Positions 1,742 to 63,491 are shown, counted from the stretch's first letter. The stretch is 64,000 nt of DNA from Armatimonadota bacterium (GCA_037444405.1 JBBIML010000008.1:4225-68224); one strand, 5' to 3'. Program-made: numbers and translations. The notes: generated by a model not told the origin, from the letters alone.

Positions 1742-2652
1742 AGAACATGAAAAGGCAGCTACCTAAAGTTGCAGTAAGAACAATATGGCGGAGCGAGATA
1801 GGTGAGAAGCCTTTTCAGTTCTCTCCTAATTTTTGGAGCATGAAAGATGGTCCGGGAAACTGCTTTATTGGCTGCCCACCCCATCTGCTTTTCTTTGCGA
1901 ATAATTCCCAGCCAAACCAAGCATATTTGATAAAAGTAAATCTTCGTAATCAAAAGCCATCGGTGATATATCAGACAGAAGGGTATATCGAAGGTGTTAC
2001 CTTTAATTTGAAAGCACAAAAGCTTCTGCTCATTACATCGAATAGGTTGACCGACGAAGGAAATCTCATCATCCTTACCCCAGAGGGTCGTCTTTTGTAT
2101 TGGGTAGCTATCGGTGAACGAATCGAAGGGCGCACAATACTTAGGGTGCCTGCTGCACCACCGCTTTGGGTACGGCTGTTGGATAACCTAACCCTGTTGG
2201 TTTACTCCTATGGCGGGAGGGATAGCTTATTTGCCTTCTCGTTGCAGGGACATCTCAAGCGAGAGTGGCAGGGAGTAACGGGGGTCGCCTTTGACCAAGA
2301 GAAAAAACGGCTCTATGTGAGTGGTCAGGTGAGCGGAACAGGGATCCATCTGGTAAGGCTGCCAAAAGATATGAAAAGTTCTACTTGGCGTTTGGTAGGT
2401 GCGGATCAGCACACACACTTTTACTGGTATCGGGGAACAGATAGCCATACGTGGTTGGCGTGTACGGATAGTCACCAGGCACGCTGGATTATTCCTTTTA
2501 GCGGTGCAGGTGGGGTTTTGGAGAAGTCGGGGCTTTCGCTAAGTTTTGGCTTGGGATGGGGAGGTGATCTGCTAGAAGTGTTTCCCGACGGGCGGATATG
2601 GTTTTCTAGTGCTTTGCTAGGCGTTTACGAGCTTAGGGTGCTGGATAGATAG
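1738..2652 (+). CDS. Putative immunity/partner protein 1 (~300 aa, beta-propeller-like, no signal peptide)
   Basis: ATGA overlap with the toxin stop at 1738-1741. Paralog of 3446-4366. Rich in short beta-strand motifs (GVAFD, RLYVSG). Confidence 0.65.
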
Positions 2653-2661
2653 GGTGCGGCG

Positions 2662-3438
2662 ATGTATCAGCAGGTAGCAGATAGTCAGGTGGAGTATAGG
2701 CACTGGAGCTGGCGGGGGGACTTAGCTGCGAAGTCCACTACCAGCGGCGCGTATCAGCCTGCGCCCGTCACGGATGCGTTTGGCGACACGGTCAGTGGCG
2801 TGCGGGAGGCTTACGACTGGAACGGGGCGTGGGGTTATCGGAACGAGGCGTTCACAGGCGGGTTGCAGAAGGTGGGCGTGCGCTGGTATGACCCTGCGGT
2901 AGGGCGGTTTTTGCAGCTGGATCCGTGGTTGGGGTCTATCTACCAGCCGCTGACGCTGAATGGGTATGGGTACTGTGTGAATGATCCTGTTCAGCTGGTG
3001 GATCCGAGTGGATATATCCCTGGAGTCAAATATAGATCAGCCGACGAAGCCGCCGCAAAAGCAATTCGTGATGCGGGAGGCTTCTCTGATGCCGCAAAAC
3101 GAGAGGTGGGAGGATGGATCTATCGAAATCCAGATGGTACATACTCGCATGATATCATCATGGGTGAGAAGACAAGTATACCGAGAGAAAGGATTCCGAA
3201 TCCGCCACCGGGAGCTGTCGGTTTTTGGCACACGCATCCTTATGTGCCGGGATATGACGGAGAGAATTTTTCGAATGTGGGGGGCGATAAAGACTTCGCC
3301 CGAGAGTGCCGTAGCAGGCTTTCGTCCTTTGGTGGGATCTATGTAGGCACTCCTTCGGGAATCATAAAGAAGTTCGACCCCTCTTCTGGAAATGAAACAG
3401 TTATTGGGCGCTGGAGATATGACGGTCCTTGGTTGTGA
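2662..3438 (+). CDS. Orphan Rhs module 2: core plus a second JAB/DUF4329-like toxin tip (3013-3438)
   Basis: Core almost identical to module 1, DPSG motif present, tip has REVGGWIY...WHTHP...FS. Confidence 0.85.
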
Positions 3439-3445
3439 GGGAATC

Positions 3446-4366
3446 ATGTCAGAGAAGCAGCCGAAAACGGTTATACGAACCGTTTGGCAAGGAGAAGCGG
3501 GGAGGATGTCTCACCGTGTTTATATAGAGATCGACGGTGTGGGTACCTGCTTCACAGCGATTCGGAACACTCTTTACTTCGCCACCCGTTCCCTGCGCCC
3601 TGAACAGGCATACCTACTAAAAATTGACTTGTCGACTCAAAAAACATCGGTTATCTACCAGACAAACGGCTCCATTAGAGGTGTCACTCATGGAAGTGCG
3701 TCGAAACTTCTGCTGATAGTTTCCCATGAGTCAGGCGACAGGCTTGTGATACTTTCTCCAGAGGGGCGTCGTTTGCAAGAGACGGCTATTGGGGAGCGAA
3801 GAGAAGGGAGCAAAGCCCTGTGGGTTCCCGCCGCGCCACCGCTCTGGATGCGATGGCTGGATGAACAGACCTTGCTGGTTTATTCCTATGGTGGTCGGGG
3901 TGACCTGCTTGCTTTTTCGCTGCAGGGGCAGCTCAAGCGGAAATGGCAGGGGGTAACAGGGGTTGCTTTTGATTCTGAAAAAAGGCGGCTCTATGTGAGT
4001 GGGGAAGTGAGCGGCTCAAGCTTTCAGAAAGTGAAACCGCCGAAAGATATGAAAAGCCCTGCATGGCGTTTGGTAGGTGTGGACAGTCAAACACACTTTT
4101 ACTGGTATCGGCAATCAGAAAGTCTCCGCTCGTGGTTGGCGTGTGCAGATAGTCATCAGACCCGATGGATAATTCCCCTTAGTGGGTCGGGTGGGGTGCT
4201 GGAGCGGTTTGATTCGTCGCTAAGTTTCGGTTTGGGGTGGGGAGGAGATACGCTGGAAGTGTTTCCAGACGGGCGAATATGGTTGTCTGCCGCTCGCAGC
4301 TTGGATACTGAAGAGATGTTTGTGCGGCAGCCCGGGGTGTATGAGCTGAGAATATTGGACAAGTAG
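3446..4366 (+). CDS. Putative immunity/partner protein 2
   Basis: ATG 7 nt after the toxin stop with GAGGGA upstream. Shares blocks with partner 1 ([41 protein letters not shown]). Confidence 0.65.
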   Translation: MSEKQPKTVIRTVWQGEAGRMSHRVYIEIDGVGTCFTAIRNTLYFATRSLRPEQAYLLKIDLSTQKTSVIYQTNGSIRGVTHGSASKLLLIVSHESGDRLVILSPEGRRLQETAIGERREGSKALWVPAAPPLWMRWLDEQTLLVYSYGGRGDLLAFSLQGQLKRKWQGVTGVAFDSEKRRLYVSGEVSGSSFQKVKPPKDMKSPAWRLVGVDSQTHFYWYRQSESLRSWLACADSHQTRWIIPLSGSGGVLERFDSSLSFGLGWGGDTLEVFPDGRIWLSAARSLDTEEMFVRQPGVYELRILDK

Positions 4367-4375
4367 AATGCAGCG

Positions 4376-4897
4376 ATGTACCAGCAGGTCAGCAGCACAG
4401 GAACCGAGTATCAGCACTGGAGCTGGCGGGGGTATCTGATGGCGAAGCCCACTGCCAGTGGCGCGTACCTGCCTGCGCCTCTCACGGACGCCTTTGGCGA
4501 TACCGCGAACGGCGCACGGGAGACTAATGACCGGAATGGCGCGTGGGGTTATCGGAACGAGGCGCTCACGGGCGGTTTGCAGAAGGTAGGCGTGCGCTGG
4601 TACGACCCTGCGGTAGGGCGGTTTTTGCAGGTAGATCCGTGGCTGGGGTCGCTTTATGCGCCCCTGACGCTGAATGGGTATGGGTATTGTGTGAATGACC
4701 CCATTCAGATGGTTGATGCAACAGGCGGGATCCCACTAATTGTCGCAATAGGGATTGGCATCATAGCAGGATTGGTTATAGACGAAATCTTAGAGCGAGT
4801 AGGAGGAAACGTGCTGCCCGAGGGTAAGCCAGGAGCTCCTCACGGGATAGGTGGAGCAGCAGCTGTCTTGCGCAAAATCCAGACGATGGGATTTTGA
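4376..4897 (+). pseudogene. Orphan Rhs module 3, degenerate: core plus a short hydrophobic tip, no partner gene
   Basis: Core carries substitutions (TNDRNG for AYDWNG; DATG for DPSG). Stops 56 codons after the core. Confidence 0.7.
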
Positions 4898-10834: not shown

Positions 10835-12229
10835 ATGCGCGAGAATGAAGACCCGCTTTATGATGTGGTTGTCTTGGGTGCTGGTCTGGCAGGTTCGGTT
10901 GCAGCGTATCTTCTTCAGCGGTCGGGTTGCCGTGTGGTGCTGGTGGAGGCGCGTTCGCGGGTGGGTGGGCGCATCGCCACGCTTTACGACTGGGATGAGC
11001 GCCAGTATGCCGAGCTGGGACCGGAGTTCATCGATTCGAATCATTGGCGCGTGTTAGGCTATGCGCAGCAGTTCGGCATTCCCGTGCGGCGGCGCACGCG
11101 CTTCTGGGGGCTTAGCCCGCTGCCGCGTGGTGGTCGCATGGCATCGAGCGCGTGGAACCGTTTCTGGGAGGCGGTGGGGCGTGAGGCGAAGCGGCTCTCC
11201 AGCAAGCCGCGCCCGCTGACCCTCCTGCTACGCCGCCTCAAAGCCTTCGCGCTGATGGATCAGCTCAGCATGCGCGACTTCGCCGAGCAGCTGGGTGTGT
11301 GGGAGAGCGCGGCGCCCCAGCTCGTTCGCTACTGTCGCAATCTGGAGGCTGCCGAGCCGCACGAGGTCTCCATACTGAGCGTGATCGCGCAGGAGGCGTT
11401 TTATGGCGATGGCGTGGAGCAGGGCGCCTATCGGCTGGAGGGCGGCACGCAGCGGCTGGTGGAATCGCTGGTGAGCGCGTTTGAACAGACAGGCGGCATG
11501 CTGATGCTGAATACGGTTGCCGAAGCCGTTCAGCGGGGGCGTCGCGGCGTGCGCCTGTATGCTCATACCGACGGGCGTGCGATGTGCCTCGACGCCCGCT
11601 ATGCCGTTATCGCGCTGCCGTTCCCAATGGTGCCCCAGCTGGAGTTCCGCCCCTCCCTTCGACCCGAACGCCTCGACGCGCTCGCCCGGATCGGCAGAGG
11701 GCATGTGGTCAAGAACCTGCTGCAGTTCCGCACGCGATTCTGGCTTCACCAGCAGCCCCAGCGCGATCGGGCTGCCCGGCTGCCCATCACGCCCGACATC
11801 TCCGCCATCTGGGATGAGACCGATATTCTGCCGGGCGAAGCGGGCATCCTGTCGCTGTGGGTTGGGGGTGAGCCAGCCAGCCGATGGGCACGCTTCAGCG
11901 AAGCGGAGCGCCTCGAGCTGTGTCTGCAGGTGCTGGACGCGCTCTACCCGAACTGTCGCGCTCAGTTCATTCGCGGCGTCAGCATGCACTGGTCGCAGGA
12001 GCCGTTCAGTCAGGTCGGTTATCCGTTCCAGCCGCCGGGCTTGCTCACGGGCGGATTCCGCGAGCTGCTCAAGCCCGAGGGGCGGCTCTTTTTTGCGGGC
12101 GACTATCTGAGCCTGTTTGTGGGCTATATGGAGGGCGCATTAGAAAGCGGTGAGCGCGCTGCCTGTGCGATTCTCAAGCGGTTGGGAAGGTATAATCAGG
12201 AGCGTCGGGGCGTAGCGCAGCATGGTTAG
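10835..12229 (+). CDS. Flavin monoamine oxidase family FAD-dependent oxidoreductase
   Basis: VVVLGAGLAG, EARSRVGGRI, AELGPEFI, LFFAGDY...GYMEGALESG. Confidence 0.88.
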   Translation: MRENEDPLYDVVVLGAGLAGSVAAYLLQRSGCRVVLVEARSRVGGRIATLYDWDERQYAELGPEFIDSNHWRVLGYAQQFGIPVRRRTRFWGLSPLPRGGRMASSAWNRFWEAVGREAKRLSSKPRPLTLLLRRLKAFALMDQLSMRDFAEQLGVWESAAPQLVRYCRNLEAAEPHEVSILSVIAQEAFYGDGVEQGAYRLEGGTQRLVESLVSAFEQTGGMLMLNTVAEAVQRGRRGVRLYAHTDGRAMCLDARYAVIALPFPMVPQLEFRPSLRPERLDALARIGRGHVVKNLLQFRTRFWLHQQPQRDRAARLPITPDISAIWDETDILPGEAGILSLWVGGEPASRWARFSEAERLELCLQVLDALYPNCRAQFIRGVSMHWSQEPFSQVGYPFQPPGLLTGGFRELLKPEGRLFFAGDYLSLFVGYMEGALESGERAACAILKRLGRYNQERRGVAQHG

Positions 12230-12283
12230 CGCGCCTGCTTTGGGTGCAGGAGGTCCCCGGTTCGAATCCGGGCGCCCCGACCA
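12206..12283 (+). tRNA. tRNA-Pro(UGG)
   Basis: CGGGGCG acceptor stem, anticodon arm CCTGC-TT-TGG-GT-GCAGG, GTTCGAATC, CCA end. GGTATAAT at 12189-12196. Confidence 0.97.
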
Positions 12284-25989: not shown

Positions 25990-26908
25990 GCGTTCTCACT
26001 CCCTGTTGAACCCCCTGCGATTGCTCTGCAGAAGTGTACCCCCTGTCGGGACGGCCCGCCCGCGGTTTGACCGCCGGGTGGTGCGGGCTTTTGAGATCGA
26101 CATACTCCCATTGAGCCGCCTGCAGCGGTGCGCTTTGCAACAGCATCTGCACGATCGGGAGCTGTTGCCGCCAGAGCGCCGCATCGCCCAGCTGGAACCG
26201 TATCGCCACGCCGCCCTCCATCTGACAGCTCAGGTACAGCTCGCCGTCAGGCGCAATCTGAATCTGGTGTCGCGCCTGCGTTGTTCGAGCCAGCTCTTTC
26301 AATAGCGCAAAGGCACGCCAGAGCGGGGTCGCAGGTCTCAGGTCGCCCCCGGCAGGCAGGGGCATACTGGCAGGTAGGGAGATGATTCCGCCCGCTGCCC
26401 GCTCTGGCGGATTCGGCGCACGAAAGGCGATTCCTGCCGAATCGACGAAAATCCGATCGCCACTGACCGCGCGAATCTCGATAAGCGGCACGCGCGGGCG
26501 CACCTGAATCTGCAGCTGTGAGGGGATCGTGGGGCGAACCTGCACGGCTTCGACCCAGCCGTGTTGCAGAAGCGCGGTCTCGACGGGGCGCACACCGAGC
26601 CGAACGCCGAACGGTTCCTGCCAGAGCTGGCGCAACTGCTGTTCGATTTCGATCTGCGCAGCAGGCGGCACGCCCTGAATCACAATCTGGCGCGGCTGCA
26701 TACGGGGCGACGCCCACAAACTCGCTATCAGGGCGAACCCGACCGTCAGCCAGAGCAGATATTCCAGGTGACGGGCGGCGATGAGCTGGCGACGACGGCG
26801 GGGCAGGGCAGAGGCGCGCGACGCCAGCCGCCGACGCCGCATCTGAACAGCCGCCTGTGCGGACGGCGCCCGAATCGCCCGTCGAACCCCACGCGCCGCA
26901 CGCCTCAT
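25973..26908 (-). CDS. ftsQ: FtsQ/DivIB-like cell division protein
   Basis: Basic N-terminus, one TM, POTRA-like region, YVDLK at the end, position after ddl; start uncertain. Confidence 0.7.
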   Translation of the reverse strand: MRRAARGVRRAIRAPSAQAAVQMRRRRLASRASALPRRRRQLIAARHLEYLLWLTVGFALIASLWASPRMQPRQIVIQGVPPAAQIEIEQQLRQLWQEPFGVRLGVRPVETALLQHGWVEAVQVRPTIPSQLQIQVRPRVPLIEIRAVSGDRIFVDSAGIAFRAPNPPERAAGGIISLPASMPLPAGGDLRPATPLWRAFALLKELARTTQARHQIQIAPDGELYLSCQMEGGVAIRFQLGDAALWRQQLPIVQMLLQSAPLQAAQWEYVDLKSPHHPAVKPRAGRPDRGYTSAEQSQGVQQGVRTHDRRQ

Positions 26909-29352
26909 GAGGAACCCTCCAGCGCGTCCTCTATCAGAAAAGTGATCAGTTGCTGGAAGGGGATGCCTGCCGCCTCCGCACTGCGCGGCAAGAGCGAGGT
27001 GGGGGTTAAGCCCGGAACGGTGTTCACCTCCAGCACGAAGGGCACGCGCTCGCGCAGGATCATATCCACACGGCTCATGCTGCGGCAGCCGAGCGCGCAG
27101 TGCGCCTGCAGGGCGGTCGCCATCAGCACATCCAGCAGTTCATCGGGCAGGCGAGCGGGCACGATCTCCTCTGTCCAGCCGGGGGTGTATTTCGCCTGAA
27201 AGCCGTAGAAGCCGCCGCGGGGCACAATCTCCACAGGGGGCAGCGCGCGCGGATGGCGCGTGCCAATCACGGGCACGGAGACCTCCACACCCTCAATCAG
27301 CTCCTCGATCAGGGCGCGCTCGTCGTAGGCGAATGCCTTCCGCAGGGCACGGGGCAACTGCTCCCACTCCCACACGCGCGTCGTGCCCAGCGTGGAGCCG
27401 CCCTCGTTGGGCTTCACAATCAGCGGCGGCTTCAGCCCGGCAAGCTTCGGGCTGGCGGCAGGCGTTAGCAGTTCATTCAGCTCCGCACGCGATACCAGCA
27501 CGCCGCGTGGCGTGGTGATGCCCGCCGACTGCAATACGATTTTGGCGGCGTATTTGTTCATGGCGAGCGCGCTGGGCAGGATGCCCGAACCTGTGTAGGG
27601 GATGCCAAGCATCTCCAGCAGACCCTGAATCGCGCCGTCCTCACCGTGCCGACCGTGCAGGGCGATGAAAGCGAGATCGGGACGCTCGCTCTGCAATAAA
27701 TCGAGCAGTCCCCAGACGCCCTCCCTGCCGCGCATCAGGGCGGGGTCCACAGGGATGCCGATGTAGCGGTCGGGGTCGAGCGCCTGTAGCACGCGCGAGC
27801 CAGAGAGCAGCGACACATCGCGTTCGGGCGAGTCGCCGCCCATCAGCACGGCGATGCGCAGTCGCCGCACCTGACCCCGCGCCTCCAGCATGCGCAGCAG
27901 GGCGGGCGCCACCTTATCGATATCGCCTGCGCCCATCGTGACCACTACATCGCCCGGCGTCAGATGGGGCAGGAGGCGAGCGGGGATCTGCTCCTTGATG
28001 GGCACATAGAGCGTGGGTGGCTGATCGCCCTCCAGCAAGCCGTCGGCAATCAGCGACGCGCTCACACCCGGGATGGGCTTCTCGCGAGCGGGATAGATAT
28101 CGGTGATGACCACCATGTCGGCGCCGCGCAGGCTCTGGATCAGCCCTTCCAGCAGGTCGCGCGTGCGACTGTACAGATGCGGCTGGAAAAGCACAATCAG
28201 GCGGCGGTTGGGGAACCGCTGGCGCAACGCGGCGAGCGTGGCGTCGATCTCCGTCGGGTGGTGCGCGTAGTCGTCCACGAGCGCGATGCCCATCGCCTCG
28301 CCAATCAGCTCCTGCCGCCGCCGAACGCCCTGAAACCCTGTTAGTGCACGCTGTGCCACCGCCATCGGGATGTTCAGCAGCTGGGCGACGCCGATCGCGC
28401 CCAGCGCGTTCAGCACATTGTGGTCGCCCACAAGCGGCAGGGAGAAGTCCCCATCGGCTGTGGATGGCACCCCCTCACCCGTACCCTCGCTTCTGCTGGA
28501 GGAGAGGGGTTGATTCTTCACGCGGAAGCGGGTGATGGAGGGTGTTCGCTCGATGATTGCGGCGTGCAGATCGTTGTGAGGCGCGAAGCCGTACAGCAGG
28601 CGTGGGCGCGGCACATCGCCACGCTCACAGAGCCGCTGTACCCCCGGATGATCCCCGCAACCAATCCAGCACCCTTCGGGTTTCAGCTGCTGCAGGAAGC
28701 GGGCGAAACTCGTTAGCAGATTCTCGAAAGTGCCGTGATAATCGAGGTGGTCGGGTTCGATGCTGGTGATGAGCGCGATTTCGGGCTGGAAGTCCAGAAA
28801 CGACTCATAGGCTTCGCAGGCTTCGACGACCGCCCATTCGCCGCTGCCCAGCCGGATATTGCCTGCCCATGGGGGCATGGTGAGCGGCGTGTCGGCGCCC
28901 AGCAGCACGAGCGGGTCGTAGCCGCCCGCTTCCAGAATGGCGGCAACGAGCGCGGTGGTGGTGCTTTTGCCGTGTGTGCCGCTGATGGCAATCACGCGAT
29001 AGGGCTTCAGCAACCAGCCCATCAGTTGCGAGCGTCGCCAGATGGGCAGGTGGCGACGCTGTGCCTCTATCACTTCGGGGTTATCGGGATGGATGGCGTC
29101 GGACACAATCAGCCAGTCGGGTTCGCCCATTCGGGCGGGGTCGTGAGGCGCGTAGGCACGGATACCACGCGTGCGCAGCGACTCCAGCGCGGGCGAGTCG
29201 GCAAGGTCGGAGCCGCTGACCGTCGCGCCCTTTTCGGCGAGCCAGCGTGCCAGCGCGGACATGCTCGCGCCCCCGATGCCCACAAAATGGAATCGCATCT
29301 GGAGGCTGGGTTCGCGGTCGGTCGTCAGCGGGATGCCTGTCGGGGACTGCAT
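26905..29352 (-). CDS. murC-ddl: Fused UDP-MurNAc-L-Ala ligase and D-Ala-D-Ala ligase
   Basis: MurC: HFVGIGGASMS, SGTHGKSTTT, DDYAHHPTE, FQPHLYSRT. Ddl: VLMGGDSPERDVSL, HGRHGEDG, AKY, LEVNTVPGLT. One unbroken frame. Confidence 0.95.
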   Translation of the reverse strand: MQSPTGIPLTTDREPSLQMRFHFVGIGGASMSALARWLAEKGATVSGSDLADSPALESLRTRGIRAYAPHDPARMGEPDWLIVSDAIHPDNPEVIEAQRRHLPIWRRSQLMGWLLKPYRVIAISGTHGKSTTTALVAAILEAGGYDPLVLLGADTPLTMPPWAGNIRLGSGEWAVVEACEAYESFLDFQPEIALITSIEPDHLDYHGTFENLLTSFARFLQQLKPEGCWIGCGDHPGVQRLCERGDVPRPRLLYGFAPHNDLHAAIIERTPSITRFRVKNQPLSSSRSEGTGEGVPSTADGDFSLPLVGDHNVLNALGAIGVAQLLNIPMAVAQRALTGFQGVRRRQELIGEAMGIALVDDYAHHPTEIDATLAALRQRFPNRRLIVLFQPHLYSRTRDLLEGLIQSLRGADMVVITDIYPAREKPIPGVSASLIADGLLEGDQPPTLYVPIKEQIPARLLPHLTPGDVVVTMGAGDIDKVAPALLRMLEARGQVRRLRIAVLMGGDSPERDVSLLSGSRVLQALDPDRYIGIPVDPALMRGREGVWGLLDLLQSERPDLAFIALHGRHGEDGAIQGLLEMLGIPYTGSGILPSALAMNKYAAKIVLQSAGITTPRGVLVSRAELNELLTPAASPKLAGLKPPLIVKPNEGGSTLGTTRVWEWEQLPRALRKAFAYDERALIEELIEGVEVSVPVIGTRHPRALPPVEIVPRGGFYGFQAKYTPGWTEEIVPARLPDELLDVLMATALQAHCALGCRSMSRVDMILRERVPFVLEVNTVPGLTPTSLLPRSAEAAGIPFQQLITFLIEDALEGSS
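28470..28509 (+). repeat. Hairpin repeat copy, in-frame inside murC
   Basis: ccccctcacccgtaccctcgcttctgctggaggagagggg. Confidence 0.8.
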
Positions 29353-30483: not shown

Positions 30484-31757
30484 CGCGTCTCCCTCGCAAT
30501 CGCCTGCGCGATTCCCAGCGCCGCCATCAGACTCAGCAGGGCGGAGCCGCCTGCGCTGACGAACGGCAACGGCAACCCCACTGTCGGCAGCAGCCCTATC
30601 GCCATGCCGATATTGATCAGCGCCTGCAGTCCGATCCAGAGCGCCAGCCCACCCGCGAACAGCCGTCCAAACCGTGTGGGCGCCCGCGCCGCCAGCTTCA
30701 GGCACGCGCCCACCAGCCACACAAACAGCCCGATGCACAGCATACTGCCCGCGAAGCCCGTCTCCTCAGCGATTGTGGCGAAGATGTAGTCGTTCTCGGC
30801 AGCGGGCAGGTAGCGTTTCTCGCATCCCTCGCCAATCGCAAGTCGTCCGATGCCGCCGCTGCCCACCGCGATCTGCGCTCGCACCATCTGGTAGCCGATG
30901 TCATGCTCATACTCCCACGGGTCCAGCATCACCAGAATGCGCTTCAGCCGATAGCCCGTCTCATCGATGGCGTGTGGCTTATCGATGAACGCCGCTTTGA
31001 TGGCGGGCAGGCAGATGAGCAGTGTGAACGCCATCAGGCTCGCCAGCCCCAGCAGGGCGATTCGGGTCAGGCTCGCCCCACCCAGAAACGCCACACCCAC
31101 ACCCAGCGCGAAGATGAGCACCATTGTGCCGAAGTCGGGCTGACGCTCAATCGCGATCAGCGCAATCAGCCAGAGCGCGATCAGCCCGTAAGCGGCTTTG
31201 CTCCATGCCCGGCGCTGGCTATAAAGCGCGGCAAAATAGAGCAGGGTTGCCAGCTTAAACATCTCGGAGGGCTGGACGCTGATGCGTCCCAGCGCGGGCA
31301 GCGTGAACTCGAACCAGCGTACTGCGCCGTTGCGCTCCACACCCAGCCCCGGTATTCGCCAGAGCGCGATCAGCACCAGGGCGCTCAGCACCAGCCAGAA
31401 CCACGCGCTCGCCTGGTAGAAACGCGACGGAATATGAGCCAGTATCAGCATCATGCCCGCGCTTAGCAGCACCCAGCACGCCTGCAATATCACGGGGCGA
31501 AACGGCTCCATCGGCGAGGCGGCGCTGGTCTTCAGAAGGTCACCAATCTGTACACTGGTCTGAAACACCAGCCCGATCAGGCAGAGTGTGAGGGGCAGCC
31601 AGAACAGTGCGTGCCGTACACCCTGCAGTGCTGCTCGCTCGCGCTCACCTCGCTGCAAGGGCGTGGTCGCCGCACCTCTCCTCGCCAGCCGCCTGTGCCG
31701 AAATGTCAGCGGCTGGATGATCGCTCCCATACGCCGGCGCGATATAGCCTTTATCAT
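30480..31757 (-). CDS. ftsW: SEDS protein FtsW
   Basis: NGAVRWF, VQPSEMFK, QPDFGT, GYQMVRAQIA, LPAAENDYIFA, GLPLPFVSAGGS. Start at ATG 31757 (ATGA overlap). Confidence 0.93.
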   Translation of the reverse strand: MIKAISRRRMGAIIQPLTFRHRRLARRGAATTPLQRGERERAALQGVRHALFWLPLTLCLIGLVFQTSVQIGDLLKTSAASPMEPFRPVILQACWVLLSAGMMLILAHIPSRFYQASAWFWLVLSALVLIALWRIPGLGVERNGAVRWFEFTLPALGRISVQPSEMFKLATLLYFAALYSQRRAWSKAAYGLIALWLIALIAIERQPDFGTMVLIFALGVGVAFLGGASLTRIALLGLASLMAFTLLICLPAIKAAFIDKPHAIDETGYRLKRILVMLDPWEYEHDIGYQMVRAQIAVGSGGIGRLAIGEGCEKRYLPAAENDYIFATIAEETGFAGSMLCIGLFVWLVGACLKLAARAPTRFGRLFAGGLALWIGLQALINIGMAIGLLPTVGLPLPFVSAGGSALLSLMAALGIAQAIARETR

Positions 31758-33154
31758 CCCTGACCTCGCTCGCTCAGTGTTCGCACGCATGCGCGGAACC
31801 GCTCGCCGCGCTCGATAAAGTTGCGGAACTGATCGAAGCTGGCACAGCCTGGCGCCAGAATCACCGTTTCGCCCGATTGCGCCAGCGCGAACGCCTGCTC
31901 GACGGCGCGTTCCAGCGTGCCTGCGTAGCGCCAGTTCGTGTAGCCTGCCGCGCTCAGGCACGCGCCGATGCGTTCGCCATCCCGACCGATCAGCATCGCC
32001 GCGCGGCAATATCGGCGGATTGCATCGGCGAGCTGCTCCGCTGAATCGTTCTTGTCGACGCCGCCCGCAATCACGATGCAGGGCTTGGGCGCAAGGCGCA
32101 GAGAGTAATCGAGCGCGGCGGCGTTTGTACACATCGAATTGTTGATGAACCGCACGCCCTTGATTTCGGCGACGAACTCCATGCGGTGAGGCACGCCGCG
32201 AAAGCTTGCCAGCGCTGTTTGAATCTGCGCCTCGCTACAGCCCACTATCCGCGCGACAGTTGCTGCTAAAAGTGCCCCCTCACCCATACCCATACCCTCT
32301 CCCCCGCAGGCGGGAGAGAGGGCTTTGAGGTCTTCATCTCCCCACAGGGAAGCGGGATTCAGGATCAGATGTCCCGCGCGTTCCACATTCAGCAGTCCGG
32401 GGCAGTTCTCGGCACGCAGCCATTTTAGAAGCTGCTGGATGCCTGCGTCGTTGCCGTTCAGCACTGCCCAGTCGTCGGGCGTCAGGTTCTCCAGCAATCG
32501 CCCCTTCGCCCGCGCGTACGCCTCAAAACTGCCGTGATAGTCCAGATGGTCGGGCGTGATGGTGGTGATGACCGCGATGCGCGGGCGAAATTGATGGATG
32601 TTTTGCAGCTGAAACGAGCTAACCTCCGCCACAAGCCACTCGTCGGGCTGCGCCTTGAGCGCGGCGGTGGTGAGCGTCTGGTCGCTTTCGGTGCCCGCGA
32701 TATTGCCGCACAGGTGCGCCCGGATGCCTGCATGGGTCAGCAGGTGGTGGATGAGCGCGGCGGTCGTCGTTTTGGCGTTCGTGCCCGTGATGGCAATAAT
32801 GGGCGCCTTTGCGAGGCGGTAGCCCAGCTCGATCTCGCTCCAGATGGGGACACCGTGCGCGCGGGCGCCCTCAAACAGCGGGTGCGACGGGGGCAGGGCA
32901 GGGCTGACGATAATCAGATCGGGCGGCGATTCCCAGTCAGGCACATCCTGTTGCGGGAACTCTGCAATGGTGATTTCCATATCAGGATCGGCTGGTGCGT
33001 CTTCCAGATGCGCTATCAACTGTTCCAGTGCATCCAGCTGCATGTCGCGGTCATACAGTTCGAGGGTGGCGCCGCGCTGGAGCAGGGCAGCCGCAGCGGC
33101 TATCCCACTGCGCCCCGTGCCAACGATTGCCACCCGCATCTCGCTCCAGTTCAT
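31754..33154 (-). CDS. murD: MurD ligase with divergent motifs
   Basis: VSPALP, AEVSSFQL, ITPDHLDYH, FRGVPHRMEF, LAPGCASFDQF; position between mraY and ftsW. Confidence 0.9.
   Translation of the reverse strand: MNWSEMRVAIVGTGRSGIAAAAALLQRGATLELYDRDMQLDALEQLIAHLEDAPADPDMEITIAEFPQQDVPDWESPPDLIIVSPALPPSHPLFEGARAHGVPIWSEIELGYRLAKAPIIAITGTNAKTTTAALIHHLLTHAGIRAHLCGNIAGTESDQTLTTAALKAQPDEWLVAEVSSFQLQNIHQFRPRIAVITTITPDHLDYHGSFEAYARAKGRLLENLTPDDWAVLNGNDAGIQQLLKWLRAENCPGLLNVERAGHLILNPASLWGDEDLKALSPACGGEGMGMGEGALLAATVARIVGCSEAQIQTALASFRGVPHRMEFVAEIKGVRFINNSMCTNAAALDYSLRLAPKPCIVIAGGVDKNDSAEQLADAIRRYCRAAMLIGRDGERIGACLSAAGYTNWRYAGTLERAVEQAFALAQSGETVILAPGCASFDQFRNFIERGERFRACVRTLSERGQG
32275..32322 (+). repeat. 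Hairpin repeat copy, in-frame inside murD
   Basis: ccccctcacccatacccataccctctcccccgcaggcgggagagaggg. Confidence 0.88.
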
Positions 33155-34223: not shown

Positions 34224-34264
34224 CCCCCTCACTCGTACCCTCTCCCCATAAACGGGGGAGAGGG
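34224..34264 (+). repeat. Hairpin repeat copy between murF and mraY
   Basis: ccccctcactcgtaccctctccccataaacgggggagaggg. Confidence 0.88.
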
Positions 34265-34271
34265 AGGTTGA

Positions 34272-35672
34272 TTACGCCTTCACGCCCATGATGCGTTCCA
34301 GCCCGATGGCGCGGGAGCCTTTGAGCAGCACCCAGTCGCCTCTTTGCACATTGCGCCAGAGCCACTCCCCTGCGCTCAGCGGGTTCTCGAAGTGCAGCAC
34401 GCGCTGAGGGGGGAACCCGCCCTCCCTGGCGGCAGCCGCCGTCCATAGCACATCGTAGCCGACCAGAATCAGGTAATCAAGCGGCTGAGTGGCAAGCCAG
34501 CGCCCCAGTTGCCAGTGCAGGCGCATGCTATAGGCGCCCAGCTCCTTCATATCGCCCAGAATGGCGATTCGGCGTTTCGCCGGCGCCTGATAGAGCAGCA
34601 CCTGCAGCGCCGCGCGCATCGAATCGGGGTTCGCGTTGTAGGCGTCGTTAATGAGCGTCCAACCGCCGGGCTGGGGCTGAATGTTCATGCGCATCTCGGG
34701 CAGTTGCACCTGCTCCAGCGCGCGTGCCGCCCACTCCAGATCGACGCCCAACACGGCAGCGACCAGCAGGGCGACCGTCGCATTCATCAGCAGATGCTCG
34801 CCCAGATAGGGCAGGGTGAGTTCAACAATTGCTCGCTCGCCTGTGGCGGGTGTCCGAATCTGGATGACGCCTGTGGTGCTGTCAGGCGCAAGGCGCGTTT
34901 CGAGCAGGCAGGCGTCTGATTCGGGATGGCGTCCGAAAGTCAGCACAGGGCAGGGCGCCAGCGAGCGCAGGAACTCATAGAACTTATCGTCACGGGGCAG
35001 GATCGCCCACCCGTCAGGCGGCAACGCCAGCAGCAGCTCGCCCTTCGCCTCTGCAATCGCCTGACGGCTGCCCAGCAGCTCGATGTGTGACCAGCCGATT
35101 TGAGTGATGACGCCGATTTGAGGGCGGGCGATCTCGGCAAGGTAGGCGATTTGCCCGCGCCCGCGCATCGCCATCTCCTGCACCAGCACCCGGTGGTGCG
35201 CCTCCAGCCCGAAGATAGTGAGCGGCACGCCAATCTCGGTGTTGAAGTTGCCCGGGCTGCTCTGAATGGCGCCGGGGTAGCCCGCTTCAAGCGCGGCGGC
35301 GGTCATCGCGCGTGTGGTGGTCTTGCCCGTGCTGCCCGTGATGCCGATAACCACCAGATCGGGCACCTGCATGCGGTAGTGGTGCGCCAGCGTGCCCAGC
35401 GCCTGCAGGGTGGAGGGCACGCGCAGCAGGGGCAGCCCTTCCGCGCCAATCGGGATATACTCCACCACCGCGGCGACCGCGCCCTTCGCGAACACCTCTT
35501 GCAGGTACATGTGTCCATCGGTGCGCTCGCCCCGCAGCGCGAAGAACAGGTCGCCCACCTGCACATTGCGGCTGTCGGTCGTGACGCCCTGCACGCGCTC
35601 CTCGCCCGTCAGCAGCACGGGCAGGCTCACGTGCAACGCCTGCGCAACCTCGCGTGTGGTCATCGCTCTCAT
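34272..35672 (-). CDS. murF: MurF ligase
   Basis: TDSR, ITGSTGKTTT, NFNTEIGVP, INDAYNANPDSM, LGDMKELG, LKGSR. Confidence 0.95.
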   Translation of the reverse strand: MRAMTTREVAQALHVSLPVLLTGEERVQGVTTDSRNVQVGDLFFALRGERTDGHMYLQEVFAKGAVAAVVEYIPIGAEGLPLLRVPSTLQALGTLAHHYRMQVPDLVVIGITGSTGKTTTRAMTAAALEAGYPGAIQSSPGNFNTEIGVPLTIFGLEAHHRVLVQEMAMRGRGQIAYLAEIARPQIGVITQIGWSHIELLGSRQAIAEAKGELLLALPPDGWAILPRDDKFYEFLRSLAPCPVLTFGRHPESDACLLETRLAPDSTTGVIQIRTPATGERAIVELTLPYLGEHLLMNATVALLVAAVLGVDLEWAARALEQVQLPEMRMNIQPQPGGWTLINDAYNANPDSMRAALQVLLYQAPAKRRIAILGDMKELGAYSMRLHWQLGRWLATQPLDYLILVGYDVLWTAAAAREGGFPPQRVLHFENPLSAGEWLWRNVQRGDWVLLKGSRAIGLERIMGVKA

Positions 35673-37255
35673 GCTCGCTTCGCTCCCATCAACTCCAGCA
35701 CGGTCTCACGGTCGCTGAATGGAAACTTTGTCGTGCCGATAATCTGATAGTTCTCGTGTCCTTTGCCTGTTAGCAGGATCAGCTCGCCCGCGATTGCCTG
35801 CGCCAGAGCAATCGCGATTGCGGCGCGCCGATCGGGTTCAATCGCCACCACTTTCTCGCGTCGTTCGGGCGGGATGCCTGCCACTATTTGCTCAAGGATG
35901 CGTTCGAGCGGTTCGGTGCGCGGATTATCGGCGGTCAGGATCACGCGGTCGGCGAGTTCGGTGGCGATGGCGCCCATCACGGGGCGTTTGGTCGGGTCGC
36001 GGTCGCCCCCGCAGCCGAACAGGATGGTGAGGCGTGTGGGTTCCAGCGCCCGTGCCGCCTCCAGCAGGCGTCGGAGGGCGTCGGGCGTGTGCGCGTAGTC
36101 CACAATCACGGTGAAGGGAGCATCGATGGGCACACGCTCGAAGCGCCCGGGCACACGCTCCACGCGTTGCAGACCCTCCTGAATGGCTTCAATCGGCAGT
36201 TCGAGGCTGAGCGCGGCGGCAATCGCGCCCAGCGCGTTCTGCAGGTTGTACGGGGCACTGAGCCGAATGCGGGCGGGGAAGCGCAACGGCTTGCCTGCAT
36301 CCGCCTGCACGATGAACTGGATGCCATCGGTGTGAATCTGCACATCGGTGGCTCGCACGCGCGCGTTCGGCTGCGTGCCGTAAGTCCACAGATCGCCTTC
36401 GGCACGCTCGGCGAACCACGCGCCCCATTCCGCATCGAGATTGATGACGGCGCGGAACGGTTTGCCCGACTGGCGTGCCAGCTCGGTGAACAGGCGCAGT
36501 TTGGCGGCGGCGTAAGCCTCCATCGTGGGGTGATAGTCCAGATGTTCAGGCGTGAGGTTGGTGAAGATGCCTGCGTCGAAGCGGATGCCGTCGGCGCGGC
36601 GCTGGTCGAGCGCGTGCGAGGAGACCTCCATCGCGACGGCGCGGGCGCCCCGCTCCAGCGCACGGCACAACAGCGCCTGCAGCACAAACGGCTCTGGCGT
36701 GGTCAGGACAGGTCCCTCACCCCCTGCCCCCTCTCCCACGCTGTGGGAGAGGGGATTTTCCATACCCCTCTCCCCCGCAAGCAGGGGAGAGGGTACGGGT
36801 AAGGGGGTATTTTCCAGTGGCTGGGGTAGCACGACGCCCAGCGTGCCAATCAGCGCACAGGGCAGACCTGCCGCCTCGAAAATCGCGCGCATCAGGTGCG
36901 TGGTGGTGGTCTTGCCGTTGGTGCCCGTGACGCCCACCACCGTTAGCTGGCGACTCGCGTCCCCGTAAAATCGTTGAGCGATTCGCCACAGTGCATCGCG
37001 CGTGTCGTCCACCTGTGCCCATGCGGGGGCGTCGGGCGGGATGGCGCGTGCATCGCTCACCAGCAGCGCGGCGGCGCCCCGCTTAATCGCCTCTTGCAAG
37101 AACTGATGCCCGTCGTGGCGCGTGCCTTTGAGCGCAACGAACAGATCGCCCGCCTGCACCTGACGCGAATCGACCTGAATGGCGCGGATCCAGCTGTCGC
37201 CATACAGCCGATGCGCCACGCCAGCCTCCTGCAACAGTTCGCTCAAGCGTTTCAT
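35669..37255 (-). CDS. murE: MurE ligase (meso-DAP type, DNPR motif)
   Basis: VTGTNGKTTT, MEVSSH, FTNLTPEHLDYH, VDYAHTPD, DNPR, GKGHE. Confidence 0.96.
   Translation of the reverse strand: MKRLSELLQEAGVAHRLYGDSWIRAIQVDSRQVQAGDLFVALKGTRHDGHQFLQEAIKRGAAALLVSDARAIPPDAPAWAQVDDTRDALWRIAQRFYGDASRQLTVVGVTGTNGKTTTTHLMRAIFEAAGLPCALIGTLGVVLPQPLENTPLPVPSPLLAGERGMENPLSHSVGEGAGGEGPVLTTPEPFVLQALLCRALERGARAVAMEVSSHALDQRRADGIRFDAGIFTNLTPEHLDYHPTMEAYAAAKLRLFTELARQSGKPFRAVINLDAEWGAWFAERAEGDLWTYGTQPNARVRATDVQIHTDGIQFIVQADAGKPLRFPARIRLSAPYNLQNALGAIAAALSLELPIEAIQEGLQRVERVPGRFERVPIDAPFTVIVDYAHTPDALRRLLEAARALEPTRLTILFGCGGDRDPTKRPVMGAIATELADRVILTADNPRTEPLERILEQIVAGIPPERREKVVAIEPDRRAAIAIALAQAIAGELILLTGKGHENYQIIGTTKFPFSDRETVLELMGAKRA
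36714..36807. repeat. Two inverted hairpin repeat copies, in-frame inside murE (36714-36754 and 36765-36807)
   Basis: ccctcaccccctgccccctctcccacgctgtgggagagggg followed by ccctctcccccgcaagcaggggagagggtacgggtaaggggg. Confidence 0.9.
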
Positions 37256-41127: not shown

Positions 41128-41169
41128 CCCCCTCACCCGTACCCTCTCCCCCGCAAGCGGGGGAGAGGG
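41128..41169 (+). repeat. Hairpin repeat, most perfect copy (intergenic)
   Basis: ccccctcacccgta + CCCTCTCCCCCGC-aa-GCGGGGGAGAGGG, a 13-bp perfect inverted repeat. Confidence 0.92.
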
Positions 41170-41192
41170 AGTTCAGAAACTGCGGGTGGGAG

Positions 41193-45267: not shown

Positions 45268-46113
45268 CTAAAACCCGAACAGTGTTTCGACGGCGCCCGA
45301 CGGGCGAATGTCAAAATATTTACGCACCCCGTACGATTCGCACACCTTCATCAGCTCCACATCGGCATTAATGAGCTTCTGATCCACATCGGATTGAGCC
45401 GTGCCGCGCATATTCATCAGGCGGTTGAGGTCCTGCTTCTGCATGGCGTCTTCGATCTGGAGCATGAAGGTAACATAGCTGCTGAGCGCAGCGTCGTAGG
45501 TGTCGGCTAACACGCGGCACTCAGCGGGCGGCGGCACAGAGCGATATTCGCGCAGCAGCCCTGCCCAATCCTGCTGATAACGCTGATAGCCCTGCTGCAG
45601 GTTTTGCATTTTTTCCTGTTGCTTCTCCTCGTCCAGTTCCAGTTTGAGCGCTAAGGCGTCTTTAAGCATTTCCAGCGCGGGATTGAAGTTGCGCTCCATC
45701 GTGCGGCGTTTCATCTCGATGCGGCGCAGGTGTTCGAGCCAGTTGATAACATGCTGGGGCGCCTGTTTGGGCTGGGGCGTCTCGGTTTGCAGCACGCTGG
45801 GACCCGACGGCTTTGGCGCTTCGGCTTGCAGCACGCTGGGCGCTGGGGGCTTGGGCGCCTCCGCCTCCAGCACGCTGGGACCCGCAGGCTTTTTCACCTG
45901 CGCCCGGGTGAGCAGTCCGCTGCGGATGCCGATGAAGGCGACAGCCCCCAGCAGCACCAGCACTCCCAACGCGAGCGCGAGCCACCGGAGTGCGCGACTA
46001 CTGCTGGAGCTAACGGGCGGGCTGCTCATCAGCGTGGCTGTGAGCGGGCGACCGCAGCGCAGACAGAACTGCGCGTTCTCTGGCAACGGCTGCCGACAGT
46101 TCGGACATTGCAC
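45268..46113 (-). CDS. Zinc-ribbon membrane protein with a Pro-rich repeat linker
   Basis: CPNC...CLRC, one TM, three 13-aa repeats, helical C-terminus. Confidence 0.7.
   Translation of the reverse strand: MQCPNCRQPLPENAQFCLRCGRPLTATLMSSPPVSSSSSRALRWLALALGVLVLLGAVAFIGIRSGLLTRAQVKKPAGPSVLEAEAPKPPAPSVLQAEAPKPSGPSVLQTETPQPKQAPQHVINWLEHLRRIEMKRRTMERNFNPALEMLKDALALKLELDEEKQQEKMQNLQQGYQRYQQDWAGLLREYRSVPPPAECRVLADTYDAALSSYVTFMLQIEDAMQKQDLNRLMNMRGTAQSDVDQKLINADVELMKVCESYGVRKYFDIRPSGAVETLFGF
45770..45890 (-). repeat. Three 39-bp coding tandem repeats
   Basis: cagcacgctggg recurs at 45790, 45829 and 45868. Confidence 0.8.
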
Positions 46114-53587: not shown

Positions 53588-53663
53588 GGGCGAATAGCTC
53601 AGGTGGGAGAGCGCTTCCCTTACAAGGAAGAGGTCGCAGGTTCGAGTCCTGCTTCGCCCACCA
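53588..53663 (+). tRNA. tRNA-Val(UAC)
   Basis: Anticodon arm CTTCC-CT-TAC-AA-GGAAG, CCA end. Confidence 0.97.
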
Positions 53664-53680
53664 TCGCCGCGTGTGGGGCA

Positions 53681-53758
53681 GGGGCTGTAGCTCAGCCAGG
53701 TCAGAGCGCCAGCCTGTCACGCTGGAGGTCGCGGGTTCAAGTCCCGTCAGCCCCGCCA
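53681..53758 (+). tRNA. tRNA-Asp(GUC)
   Basis: CCAGC-CT-GTC-AC-GCTGG, CCA end. Confidence 0.97.
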
Positions 53759-53771
53759 GCCGGGTAGATTT

Positions 53772-53846
53772 GCCGGGGTAGCTCAGTGGTAGAGCACGGG
53801 ACTGAAAATCCCGGTGTCGTCGGTTCGACTCCGACCCCCGGCACCA
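53772..53846 (+). tRNA. tRNA-Phe(GAA)
   Basis: CGGGA-CT-GAA-AA-TCCCG, CCA end. Confidence 0.97.
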
Positions 53847-53848
53847 AC

Positions 53849-53934
53849 GGGCGAGTGGTGGAACTGGTAGACACGCCAGACTTAGGATCTGGTGGGCACT
53901 GCCCGTGGGAGTTCGAGTCTCCCCTCGCCCACCA
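53849..53934 (+). tRNA. tRNA-Leu(UAG)
   Basis: CCAGA-CT-TAG-GA-TCTGG, long variable arm, CCA end. Confidence 0.97.
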
Positions 53935-53958
53935 AAATCGGGTATAATACATACATGA

Positions 53959-54033
<75 letters not shown>

Positions 54034-62262: not shown

Positions 62263-63438
62263 ATGAGGCTGAATCGATGGCTTCTGGGTTTGATACTGGG
62301 CGCGCTCTGGGTTAGCCCCGCGCCCGCGCAGGTCGTGTTCTCATTCGAGACCCCCGATCTGCATGGCTACGCCGACGACGCCGATCCGTCCGACTACTGC
62401 GATGCCGTCGGCTGGGAGAACTGCTGGCAAATCTTTCAGGCGACGCAGGGCGTCACCCACGGCAACTACTCGATGGGCGTGAAGTGGCCGGGTGGTTTCC
62501 GCTGGCTGATCAGCGGCAGCGTGCCCGATATGCTCGCGGCTCTTCGCACTGAACAGCGCCTGCTGGTGGACATCACTGTGCCCGCGGGTGTGTCTGTGCC
62601 GTGGGCAAACTTCATCGTGGCGTTCAACGATGGTGAGCTAGGCTGGCGCCAGACAAACTGCAATCAGGCGACGATCCCACGCAACCCCGGCAGCTACACC
62701 GTGATGATCGACACGCGCTCGCTGGCGCTGCCCTCTGGTGAATACAACGACTGGTTCCAGTTCAATTTGGGGCTGAACGCGGGTGGACACCATGAGATTT
62801 ATGTGGACAGCGTGCGCCTGTTTGACGATTCGCGCACGCAGGTGGCGTTCAGCTTCGACAGCGACACGCAGGGCTTCAGCTCCAGCGGTGCAAGCGTGAG
62901 CTGGGACAACGGCGCGATGCGGGTCGAATGGGGCGGCGGCTTCAACTGGATTACAGGCGGCTCCACCCCTGGTCTTGCGTCGCTGATCCGGCGCGGGCAC
63001 ATCCTGGTGATGGACATCACCGTGCCATCAGGCACTTCGGTGCCCTGGGCGAGCATGATTATCGCCTTTAATGACCCTGCAGGCTGGCGGCAGACCACCA
63101 ACCCGATCGAGCTGCCCGTGTGCGCAGGCAGTTTCAGCCTTGCAGTGGACTATCGGGAGCTGGCGCTACCCGACGCTGGCGTGGAGTGGTTCACTCTGAA
63201 CCTCGGCGTTAATGCTGGCGGGGCGCACACCATCCTCATCGATAATATCCGCGTGCTGGTGGAGCCGGTGCCTGGCGATGTGGACGGCAACGGCTGCGTG
63301 GATGACGCCGACCTGCTGGCGGTGCTGTTCGCGTTTGGCTGCAGCAGCGAGTGCGGCGCTGAGGATGTGAACGGCGACGGCGTGGTGGATGATGCCGATC
63401 TGCTGACTGTGCTGTTCAACTTCGGACGGGGTTGTTAA
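62263..63438 (+). CDS. Secreted protein: two tandem CBM-like beta-sandwich repeats plus a dockerin/EF-hand-like C-terminal domain
   Basis: Signal peptide ending APA-Q; repeat DITVP.G.SVPWA..I.AFND..GWRQT...NLG.NAGG.H.I.(V/I)D; twin motif GDVDGNGCVDDADLL / EDVNGDGVVDDADLL. Confidence 0.8.
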   Translation: MRLNRWLLGLILGALWVSPAPAQVVFSFETPDLHGYADDADPSDYCDAVGWENCWQIFQATQGVTHGNYSMGVKWPGGFRWLISGSVPDMLAALRTEQRLLVDITVPAGVSVPWANFIVAFNDGELGWRQTNCNQATIPRNPGSYTVMIDTRSLALPSGEYNDWFQFNLGLNAGGHHEIYVDSVRLFDDSRTQVAFSFDSDTQGFSSSGASVSWDNGAMRVEWGGGFNWITGGSTPGLASLIRRGHILVMDITVPSGTSVPWASMIIAFNDPAGWRQTTNPIELPVCAGSFSLAVDYRELALPDAGVEWFTLNLGVNAGGAHTILIDNIRVLVEPVPGDVDGNGCVDDADLLAVLFAFGCSSECGAEDVNGDGVVDDADLLTVLFNFGRGC

Positions 63439-63439
63439 G

Positions 63440-63479
63440 CCCCCCTCACCCCTACCCTCTCCCCCGCTGGGGGAGAGGG
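63440..63479 (+). repeat. Hairpin repeat copy directly after a stop codon
   Basis: cccccctcacccctaccctctcccccgctgggggagaggg. Confidence 0.9.
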
Positions 63480-63491
63480 TTTTGCTTTTTT
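63455..63491 (+). terminator. Possible intrinsic terminator formed by the repeat hairpin plus a T-tract
   Basis: CCCTCTCCCCC-gct-GGGGGAGAGGG followed by ttttgctttttt. Confidence 0.55.

Follow-up and report, generated by a model that had tools for sequence, protein, structure and literature searches.

Can a MurD ligase remain a working enzyme when a dispersed repeat occupies the position of one of its ATP-binding motifs? The question is raised by a 64,000-nt stretch of DNA from an Armatimonadota bacterium (GCA_037444405.1 JBBIML010000008.1:4225-68224; hereafter, the window), whose murD gene carries a hairpin repeat, in frame, where MurD proteins normally have the GxHNxxN motif. We think it probable, from comparison of sequences, that this gene is a working murD from a member of the Fimbriimonadales (Armatimonadota), that the adenine pocket of its product is non-canonical by descent, and that the repeat is a tolerated in-frame passenger similar to the Rickettsia palindromic elements (RPEs). 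The argument begins from the following features.

31754-33154, minus strand: murD, 466 aa, with mraY and ftsW either side in the division and cell wall (dcw) operon; identified from the open reading frame (ORF) list, Pfam, the best PDB matches, and synteny with a distant locus (L001) and a sister genome (L003).
32762-32785, minus strand: the P-loop, GTNAKTTT, residues 124-131; A127 lies at the position of E. coli G114.
32277-32323, minus strand: the in-frame repeat copy in murD, encoding about residues 278-293 (ALSPACGGEGMGMGEG); from pattern and repeat searches, the codon map and alignment of copies.
32295-32323, minus strand: the hairpin part of this unit, a 13-bp stem with loop GCCTGC on the mRNA strand; from the inverted-repeat list and RNA folding.
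32282-32297, minus strand: a 6-nt tandem duplication in the G-rich tail of the unit, ATGGGT on the coding strand (Tandem Repeats Finder (TRF), period 6, 2.7 copies, 100% match).
32243-32281, minus strand: the helix that closes the central domain, residues 292-304 (EGALLAATVARIV), with G293 at the canonical N-cap position of N271; from AlphaFold2 (AF2) and alignment to E. coli MurD.
32123-32143, minus strand: NNSMCTN, residues 338-344; N339 corresponds to E. coli D317, M341 to K319 and T343 to T321.

The repeat at the GxHNxxN position of MurD

The product of the window gene has the three-domain architecture of Mur ligases (Pfam MurD-like_N, Mur_ligase_M and Mur_ligase_C). Its best sequence relatives of solved structure are all MurDs (S. 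agalactiae 3lk7, E = 6e-61), and its named homologues come from Fimbriimonadales and Armatimonadota metagenome-assembled genomes (MAGs). The same-strand neighbours are murF (34272-35672), mraY (33151 to about 34209, its start being taken from the L003 orthologue), ftsW and murG. The start and stop codons of murD overlap those of the neighbouring genes, and each locus examined (L001, L002 and L003) has such a murD between mraY and ftsW in its dcw cluster.

The segment of MurD that contains the repeat reads ALSPACGGEGMGMGEGALLAATVARIVG, and the codon table assigns DEDLKALSPACGGEGMGMGEGALLAATVARIVG to residues 273-305. We mapped residues by phmmer alignments to the MurDs of S. agalactiae, A. baumannii, P. 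aeruginosa and E. coli. Across the repeat, G289 aligns with E. coli H267, M290 with N268, G293 with N271, and A294-L295 with A272-L273; elsewhere, D202/H203 align with D182/H183, K217 with K198, R324 with R302, and K368 with K348. No displaced GxHNxxN motif is found near the site in the alignments to solved MurDs. Because length is nearly conserved at the site, the resident segment is gone rather than shifted: about 17 resident codons are wholly absent, and the 3' end of the repeat falls directly after the N271-equivalent codon. A first-pass annotation of this DNA had placed the repeat peptide at the GxHNxxN position, as an apparent replacement rather than an addition, and both points hold. 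Its readings of the peptide, GTNAKTTT, NNSMCTN and the D-Glu tail PGCASFDQF (residues 435-443) are reproduced by ORF translation and the codon map.

In E. coli MurD, ADP is contacted by G114, K115, S116, T117, N271, R302 and D317, and D-Glu is bound by T321, K348, S415 and F422 (review, PMC9780078). The window protein has a Gly (G293) in place of the adenine-contacting Asn of N271, an Asn that is also absent from L003, and an Asn (N339) in place of the ribose-contacting Asp of D317. The P-loop Lys, the Mg-binding Glu and His, and the carbamylated Lys are present as K128, E177, H203 and K217 (E. coli K115, E157, H183 and K198), and are invariant in the larger of our two alignments, which hold 29 and 84 Armatimonadota MurDs. 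Also conserved are D202, R324 and the D-Glu-binding residues T343, K368, S439 and F446. MurF, MurC and MurE of the window locus all keep NxxN.

The altered motifs might be read as signs of decay, and their distribution speaks against this. NNSMCTN is a phylum trait, since 83 of the 84 Armatimonadota MurDs carry it, including that of Chthonomonas calidirosea; MurDs of other phyla read NDSKATN. GTNAK is common to the window MurD and the ten database proteins closest to it (P0002-P0011, 64-70% identity), with Gly in all 73 outgroup proteins; this P-loop Ala (G127A; E. coli G114) is the only strictly clade-diagnostic substitution. The crystallised MurDs of P. aeruginosa and A. baumannii read GSNAK/GSNAKST, and so have Ala at the same position. 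All ten relatives are free of the repeat at the site, and all ten lack GxHxxxN. Asn at the N271 position is absent from 11 of 11 clade proteins (P0001 being the window MurD); in the outgroup it is present in 56 of 73 by pattern search and, on inspection, in 16 of the 17 that the search missed (P0111 left out). The Pfam Mur_ligase_M match ends at about position 141 of 200 in P0001, P0003 and P0005, and is full-length in P0018, P0086 and P0101. As judged from these alignments, G114A and loss of the N271 Asn are common to a 12-member clade, and D317N and K319M are phylum-wide. It is reasonable to suppose that nucleotide is bound differently throughout the clade, and that this would be a property of the clade and not of the repeat. 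By the first-pass annotation's own account, lack of the motif in repeat-free relatives would refute its inference, and P0002-P0011 do lack it. A320C has the same phylum-wide distribution as D317N and K319M (E. coli numbering) in Armatimonadota MurDs.

Other Fimbriimonadales MurDs have different inserts, repeat-like or related to Vsr/DUF559, in the 50 residues before the last central-domain helix, and this part of the central domain is, on the sequences compared, a general insertion hot spot. Six Fimbriimonadales MurDs (P0026, P0034, P0035, P0041, P0049 and P0057) are 700-742 aa long; they have an insert of about 270 aa with Vsr/DUF559 endonuclease Pfam matches after the residue equivalent to 243, and keep GTHGLENAL. 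In these proteins an entire endonuclease domain is embedded in an essential ligase.

We propose that a small, non-autonomous, mobile hairpin repeat inserted in frame at the loop and helix N-cap that once bore GxHxxxN. With stop-free frames and unit lengths in multiples of three, the repeat would be translated as a Gly-rich, floppy loop. Units would then be gained and lost at the murD site by recombination between copies (one in the window, four in L003), with selection retaining in-frame outcomes only. The enzyme would still ligate D-Glu using ATP without N271, and the repeat peptide presumably has no function of its own; for the repeat itself, we infer a transposition mechanism.

Dispersal of the repeat, and its behaviour in a sister genome

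On the murD coding strand, the repeat runs CCCTCTCCCCC, a loop of 3 or 6 nt, GGGGGAGAGGG and then TACGGGTGAGGGGG. Its hairpin pattern is found at five further places in the window, as against no occurrence in 100 shuffles. Units are usually 39 or 42 nt long, both multiples of three (39, 42 or 48 nt over all units); they were compared by simple scoring, and MAFFT placed the length variation at the 5' end rather than in the loop. Five of the six reading frames of the unit have no stop codon. The other clear copies in the window are as follows.

28470-28511, minus strand: in-frame copy in murC-ddl (SSSRSEGTGEG); an intact GDHNVLNAL follows 12 aa downstream.
36715-36807, minus strand: two inverted units in murE, in frame, residues about 150-182.
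34224-34265, minus strand: intergenic copy in the murF-mraY spacer.
41128-41170, minus strand: intergenic copy in the spacer between mraZ and a peroxiredoxin-like gene.
63441-63482, minus strand: intergenic copy just past the stop codon of the ORF at 62263-63438.

Coding sequences hold four of the seven clear copies (in murC-ddl, murD and murE), and the other three sites are intergenic. The pair in murE (35669-37255, minus strand), which resembles a doublet of repetitive extragenic palindromes (REPs) forming a hairpin (REPIN), occupies the loop after the P-loop helix: PLPVPSPLLAGERGMENPLSHSVGEGAGGEG. The murD copy differs from the others in its duplication (ACCCAT, 2.7 copies), which they lack; G-T/M-G-E-G therefore becomes G-M-G-M-G-E-G (GMGMG) in murD. 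Its hairpin folds as RNA at -34 kcal/mol for 71 nt (z = -2.5). We rejected the repeat as a terminator or known RNA: no T-run terminator was found at the murD hairpin, and no Rfam family matches in the window. We also note that the G-rich strand of the unit, GGGGGAGAGGGTACGGGTGAGGGGG, has at least four G-tracts with 3-nt spacers, a G-quadruplex-type motif (32277-32310, and all other copies); this is the mRNA strand in murD, murC and murE, and it competes with the hairpin. Separately, murC and ddl are fused in one 815-aa ORF (26905-29352, minus strand; Pfam Mur ligase and D-Ala-D-Ala ligase domains).

The sister genome L003 is a GTDB genome, Armatimonadota bin PFS170222_bin_173, whose MurD orthologue is 96% identical outside the site. 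The L003 protein is 513 aa long and has four repeat units, one of them inverted, at the same site, amounting to 47 additional residues (141 nt) in frame. The flanks are identical in the two genomes, with WGDEEPK upstream and ALLAAAVARIVGC downstream, and the unit nearest the helix (GGEGMGEG, followed by ALLAA) is kept in both. The window unit has the loop of L003 unit 2 (GCCTGC) and the tail and flank of L003 unit 4 (TATGGG), which is the product expected if recombination between direct units had deleted the rest. A similar difference exists in murC-ddl, where the window has a single unit and L003 has four (L003 14790-14995; 870 aa, 55 aa more, in frame); in murE, L003 is one aa shorter, also in frame. 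All length differences between L003 and the window in these three genes are multiples of three. The murC and murD clusters of L003 share the same four-unit architecture, including an inverted pair, and inverted pairs with a spacer are found at 36715-36807 in the window and at 10868-10972 and 14841-14942 in L003.

The gene that carries this variable site is under strong purifying selection. The ratio of non-synonymous to synonymous substitution rates (dN/dS) between the window and L003 murD is 0.103, with dS of 0.18 (Nei-Gojobori, NG86). Neighbouring genes range from 0.06 to 0.26, with murF at 0.09 and ftsA at 0.10, and with mraY, ftsW, murG and murE above murD. At greater distance, MurD is 66% identical to its counterpart at L001, within an operon range of 61-83%.

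The AF2 model of the window MurD, built from the 84-sequence alignment, has a predicted local distance difference test score (pLDDT) of 93 and a predicted template modelling score of 0.92. The only segment with pLDDT below 50 is residues 281-289 (PACGGEGMG), after which the model has the helix of residues 292-304; the model of P0003, a repeat-free relative, is confident across the same site. In a Foldseek search, the top 33 matches were all MurDs, with TM-scores of up to 0.77-0.81 to E. coli MurD. The repeat peptide is thus predicted by the model to be a floppy loop in an otherwise normal MurD fold. The site appears permissive by its low-confidence loop and its copy-number variation, yet it coincides with the position of the ATP-adenine motif. 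In a nearby region (about 32321-32400), AF2 places short helices (residues 252-259, 267-270 and 273-278) in place of the small antiparallel sheet of canonical MurD. A conserved segment, WLRAExCPGLxNVERAGHL, is common to the window MurD, P0012-P0016 and P0086.

Order of events and competing explanations

Several observations weigh against the reading that we favour. Three of the seven ADP contacts of E. coli MurD (G114, N271 and D317) differ in the window protein, and normal ATP use is therefore an assumption. No transposase was identified for the repeat in a Pfam scan limited to a small number of ORFs that the repeat flanks (two without a match, the others being peroxiredoxin, MraZ and TGT), and the REP-associated tyrosine transposase (RAYT) was not systematically sought. 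In a neighbour-joining tree built from our own distances with 200 bootstraps, the twelve-member clade holds together in 200 of 200; within it, the window MurD is sister to all repeat-free members rather than nested among them (188 of 200), so that a single loss of the motif on the stem is no more parsimonious than two losses. Lastly, the helix after the junction, ALLAATVA, is nearer to the canonical ALAAAxVA than are LQIAVLVA and AQIAVQVA of the repeat-free sub-clades (one residue shorter), and the motif may therefore have gone independently here, through the repeat.

These last two points lead to the alternative that survives best, which the first-pass annotation had proposed: that the motif was still canonical in the window lineage until the repeat itself destroyed it. 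We regard this as possible, if somewhat doubtful. A cluster would have inserted just upstream of GxHxLEN, as in murC, and recombination between units or slippage would have deleted about 17 codons, including that for N271. The sister sub-clades would have lost the motif separately, by point changes and a one-codon deletion, with both losses tolerated through an earlier change, perhaps G114A. In addition to the sister position of the window MurD and the fit of its helix to the canonical one, which is better than that of sub-clades A and B, this explanation is favoured by the 3' junction right after the N271-equivalent codon, by the complete absence of the 17 or so resident codons and by the position of the murC repeat, only 12 aa upstream of an intact motif. 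The window copy, moreover, looks like a recombinant of L003 units 2 and 4, so inter-unit deletion does seem to occur here. Nonetheless, the scenario requires two independent losses of a residue that the other 73 Armatimonadota MurDs retain, no known relative has an empty site that still bears the motif, and the junction evidence is circumstantial. An earlier loss is favoured by the fact that the whole clade tolerates the absence of the Asn, and by the lack of any trace of a decayed repeat at the P0003 site. On the narrow matter of order, that is, whether loss came first or the repeat removed the motif in the window lineage, we put the odds as roughly even.

The repeat-free relatives could, in principle, carry a decayed ancestral copy; we found no support for this. 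The P0003 murD site matches the repeat consensus at 11 of 43 positions, which is background (90th percentile 10, 99th percentile 12), and no copies of the family are present in the 13-kb P0003 locus (L001). A metagenome scan for intermediate relatives yielded one further clade member only, L083, which is of the P0011 type.

A more far-reaching version holds that a mobile, REPIN-like repeat overwrote the adenine motif, and that the enzyme survived as the Gly-rich loop of the repeat contributes to, or relaxes, nucleotide binding. We consider this unlikely; if it were true, selfish DNA would have been recruited into an active site, with possibly altered nucleoside triphosphate specificity.

Less likely still is co-option of the murD copy, whether as a peptide (GGEGMGMGEG) in the nucleotide pocket or as an mRNA hairpin or G-tracts that modulate translation or stability of the dcw transcript. 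A Gly-rich loop does lie at the N-terminus of the helix, exactly at the adenine site; the 13-bp stem is stable at -34 kcal/mol, the mRNA strand has at least four G-tracts, and the helix-proximal unit is kept in both genomes. However, the peptide is no more than the translation of the consensus repeat in that frame, identical units are found in intergenic DNA and in other genes, and AF2 confidence for the segment is below 50. Copy number differs four-fold between genomes whose MurDs are 96% identical, and repeat-free relatives manage without the peptide.

We give an equally small chance to the suggestion that this MurD is impaired, or a pseudo-enzyme, with the D-Glu step carried out by another ligase elsewhere in the genome. 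The three altered ADP-contact positions could be taken this way, as could the last third of the central domain, which has no Pfam model match. Purifying selection, the invariant residues and the confident fold make it unlikely: dN/dS of 0.10 is like that of murF and ftsA, all indels relative to L003 are in frame, and the catalytic Lys, Glu, His, carbamylated Lys and Arg and the D-Glu-binding residues are invariant. The operon position and the overlapping start and stop codons have been kept, the unusual traits are common to the whole clade, and murD is in the dcw cluster at L001, L002 and L003. A scan of a genome collection gave one locus from the L003 genome, which is weak evidence in the same direction. 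Of the interpretation in the first-pass annotation, then, the occupation of the motif position by the repeat stands, and the impairment is disfavoured.

An assembly or binning artefact, in the form of a repeat-induced chimeric join, has practically no chance of being the explanation: De Bruijn contigs are indeed interrupted at the repeat where run coverage is low (X3 records 16 and 17), but the murD region is recovered gap-free in independent Logan contigs of four subsurface-metagenome runs, including a strain about 1% divergent with identical structure, an 11-kb X1 contig and contigs from X2 and X4 cross the repeat site with 0 gaps, and the independently assembled L003 MAG has identical flanks with more units.

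Relation to known repeats and MurD variants

RPEs are palindromic repeats that are found in frame in many unrelated genes and are translated with the product (Ogata et al., 2000, as summarised in PMC10969869). By analogy, they are the closest precedent for the murD repeat that we regard as a passenger. Both are short, palindromic, selfish repeats, dispersed between genes and in frame within unrelated or essential genes, with the host protein under selection. The window family matches this pattern in being palindromic, in lying both between genes and in ORFs with the frame intact (the 64 kb include at least four in-gene units, spread over three Mur ligase genes), and in having host genes under purifying selection. 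There are differences. RPEs are about 100-150 bp long, whereas the window unit is 39-42 nt, GC-rich and ends in a G-tract tail. Unlike RPEs, clusters of the window repeat vary in unit number between close genomes, and the host belongs to a different phylum, the Armatimonadota, and is free-living in the subsurface. RPEs are described as surface features of their host proteins, remote from catalytic sites; the murD copy, by contrast, lies at the position of an ATP-binding motif.

The repeat also resembles REPs and REPINs, which are mobilised by RAYTs (PMC3337134, PMC3116915), in being a short, imperfect palindrome (20-40 nt) next to a conserved flank, in forming some inverted pairs with a spacer, in occurring as singlets and clusters, and in having many copies per genome. 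REPs are, however, extragenic by definition, whereas four of the seven clear window copies are in coding sequences, and the REP flank is a GTAG-type tetranucleotide rather than a G-rich tail of 14 nt.

As for the enzyme, the window MurD shares with the canonical proteins of E. coli, S. agalactiae and P. aeruginosa its three-domain fold, the P-loop Lys, the residues E157, H183, K198, R302, T321, K348, S415 and F422, and its dcw position. It differs from them in the absence of N271 and of H267/N268, in D317 to Asn and K319 to Met, and in the sheet before the last central helix, which AF2 predicts to be remodelled. MurD2, the L-Glu-adding ligase of the MurD2/MurL pathway, has Glu at D182 and Arg at K348 as specificity residues (PMC8788868). 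It resembles the window protein in being a homologue of MurD whose residues are altered around the ADP and Glu sites. We rejected MurD2 as a family assignment: D202 and K368 are canonical, no murL is adjacent (the neighbours are mraY and ftsW, with no gene of unknown kind next to murD), and non-Armatimonadota relatives read NDSKATN. The K319T substitution is reported to let E. coli MurD accept L-Glu (PMC8788868), and because it relaxes stereospecificity there, we keep K319M as a lead: by analogy, the Glu stereospecificity of Armatimonadota MurD may differ.

Other features of the window and of the comparison set lie apart from these subjects. At 986-4705, a unit of about 1.7 kb is present three times in tandem, with 71-87% identity over the reported segments (repeat families D1, D2, D4 and D14); these units are probably tandem paralogous genes. 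A 39-nt tandem repeat is present at 45776-45892 (3 copies, 75% matches, TRF score 136). Five tRNA genes lie within 450 nt at 53588-54030, and an isolated tRNA gene is at 12206-12280. The MurD of L005, a contig labelled Rugosimonospora sp., is nearly identical to that of L004, an Acidobacteriota MAG; this similarity suggests that the L005 contig is mis-binned in the public record.

If our reading is correct, the murD repeat would extend what is known of selfish DNA within genes from Rickettsia to a free-living, little-studied phylum, to a shorter, GC-rich element, and to three paralogous essential ligases in which unit number shifts between near-identical genomes. For annotation, GEG-rich repeat peptides in housekeeping genes of these MAGs are real sequence, and not misassemblies or pseudogenes. 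More generally, Asn271, which is treated as invariant in MurD, can be absent from a gene under purifying selection, and a whole Fimbriimonadales clade lacks it. This bears on how general conservation rules, and inhibitor designs aimed at the ATP site, are for Mur ligases.

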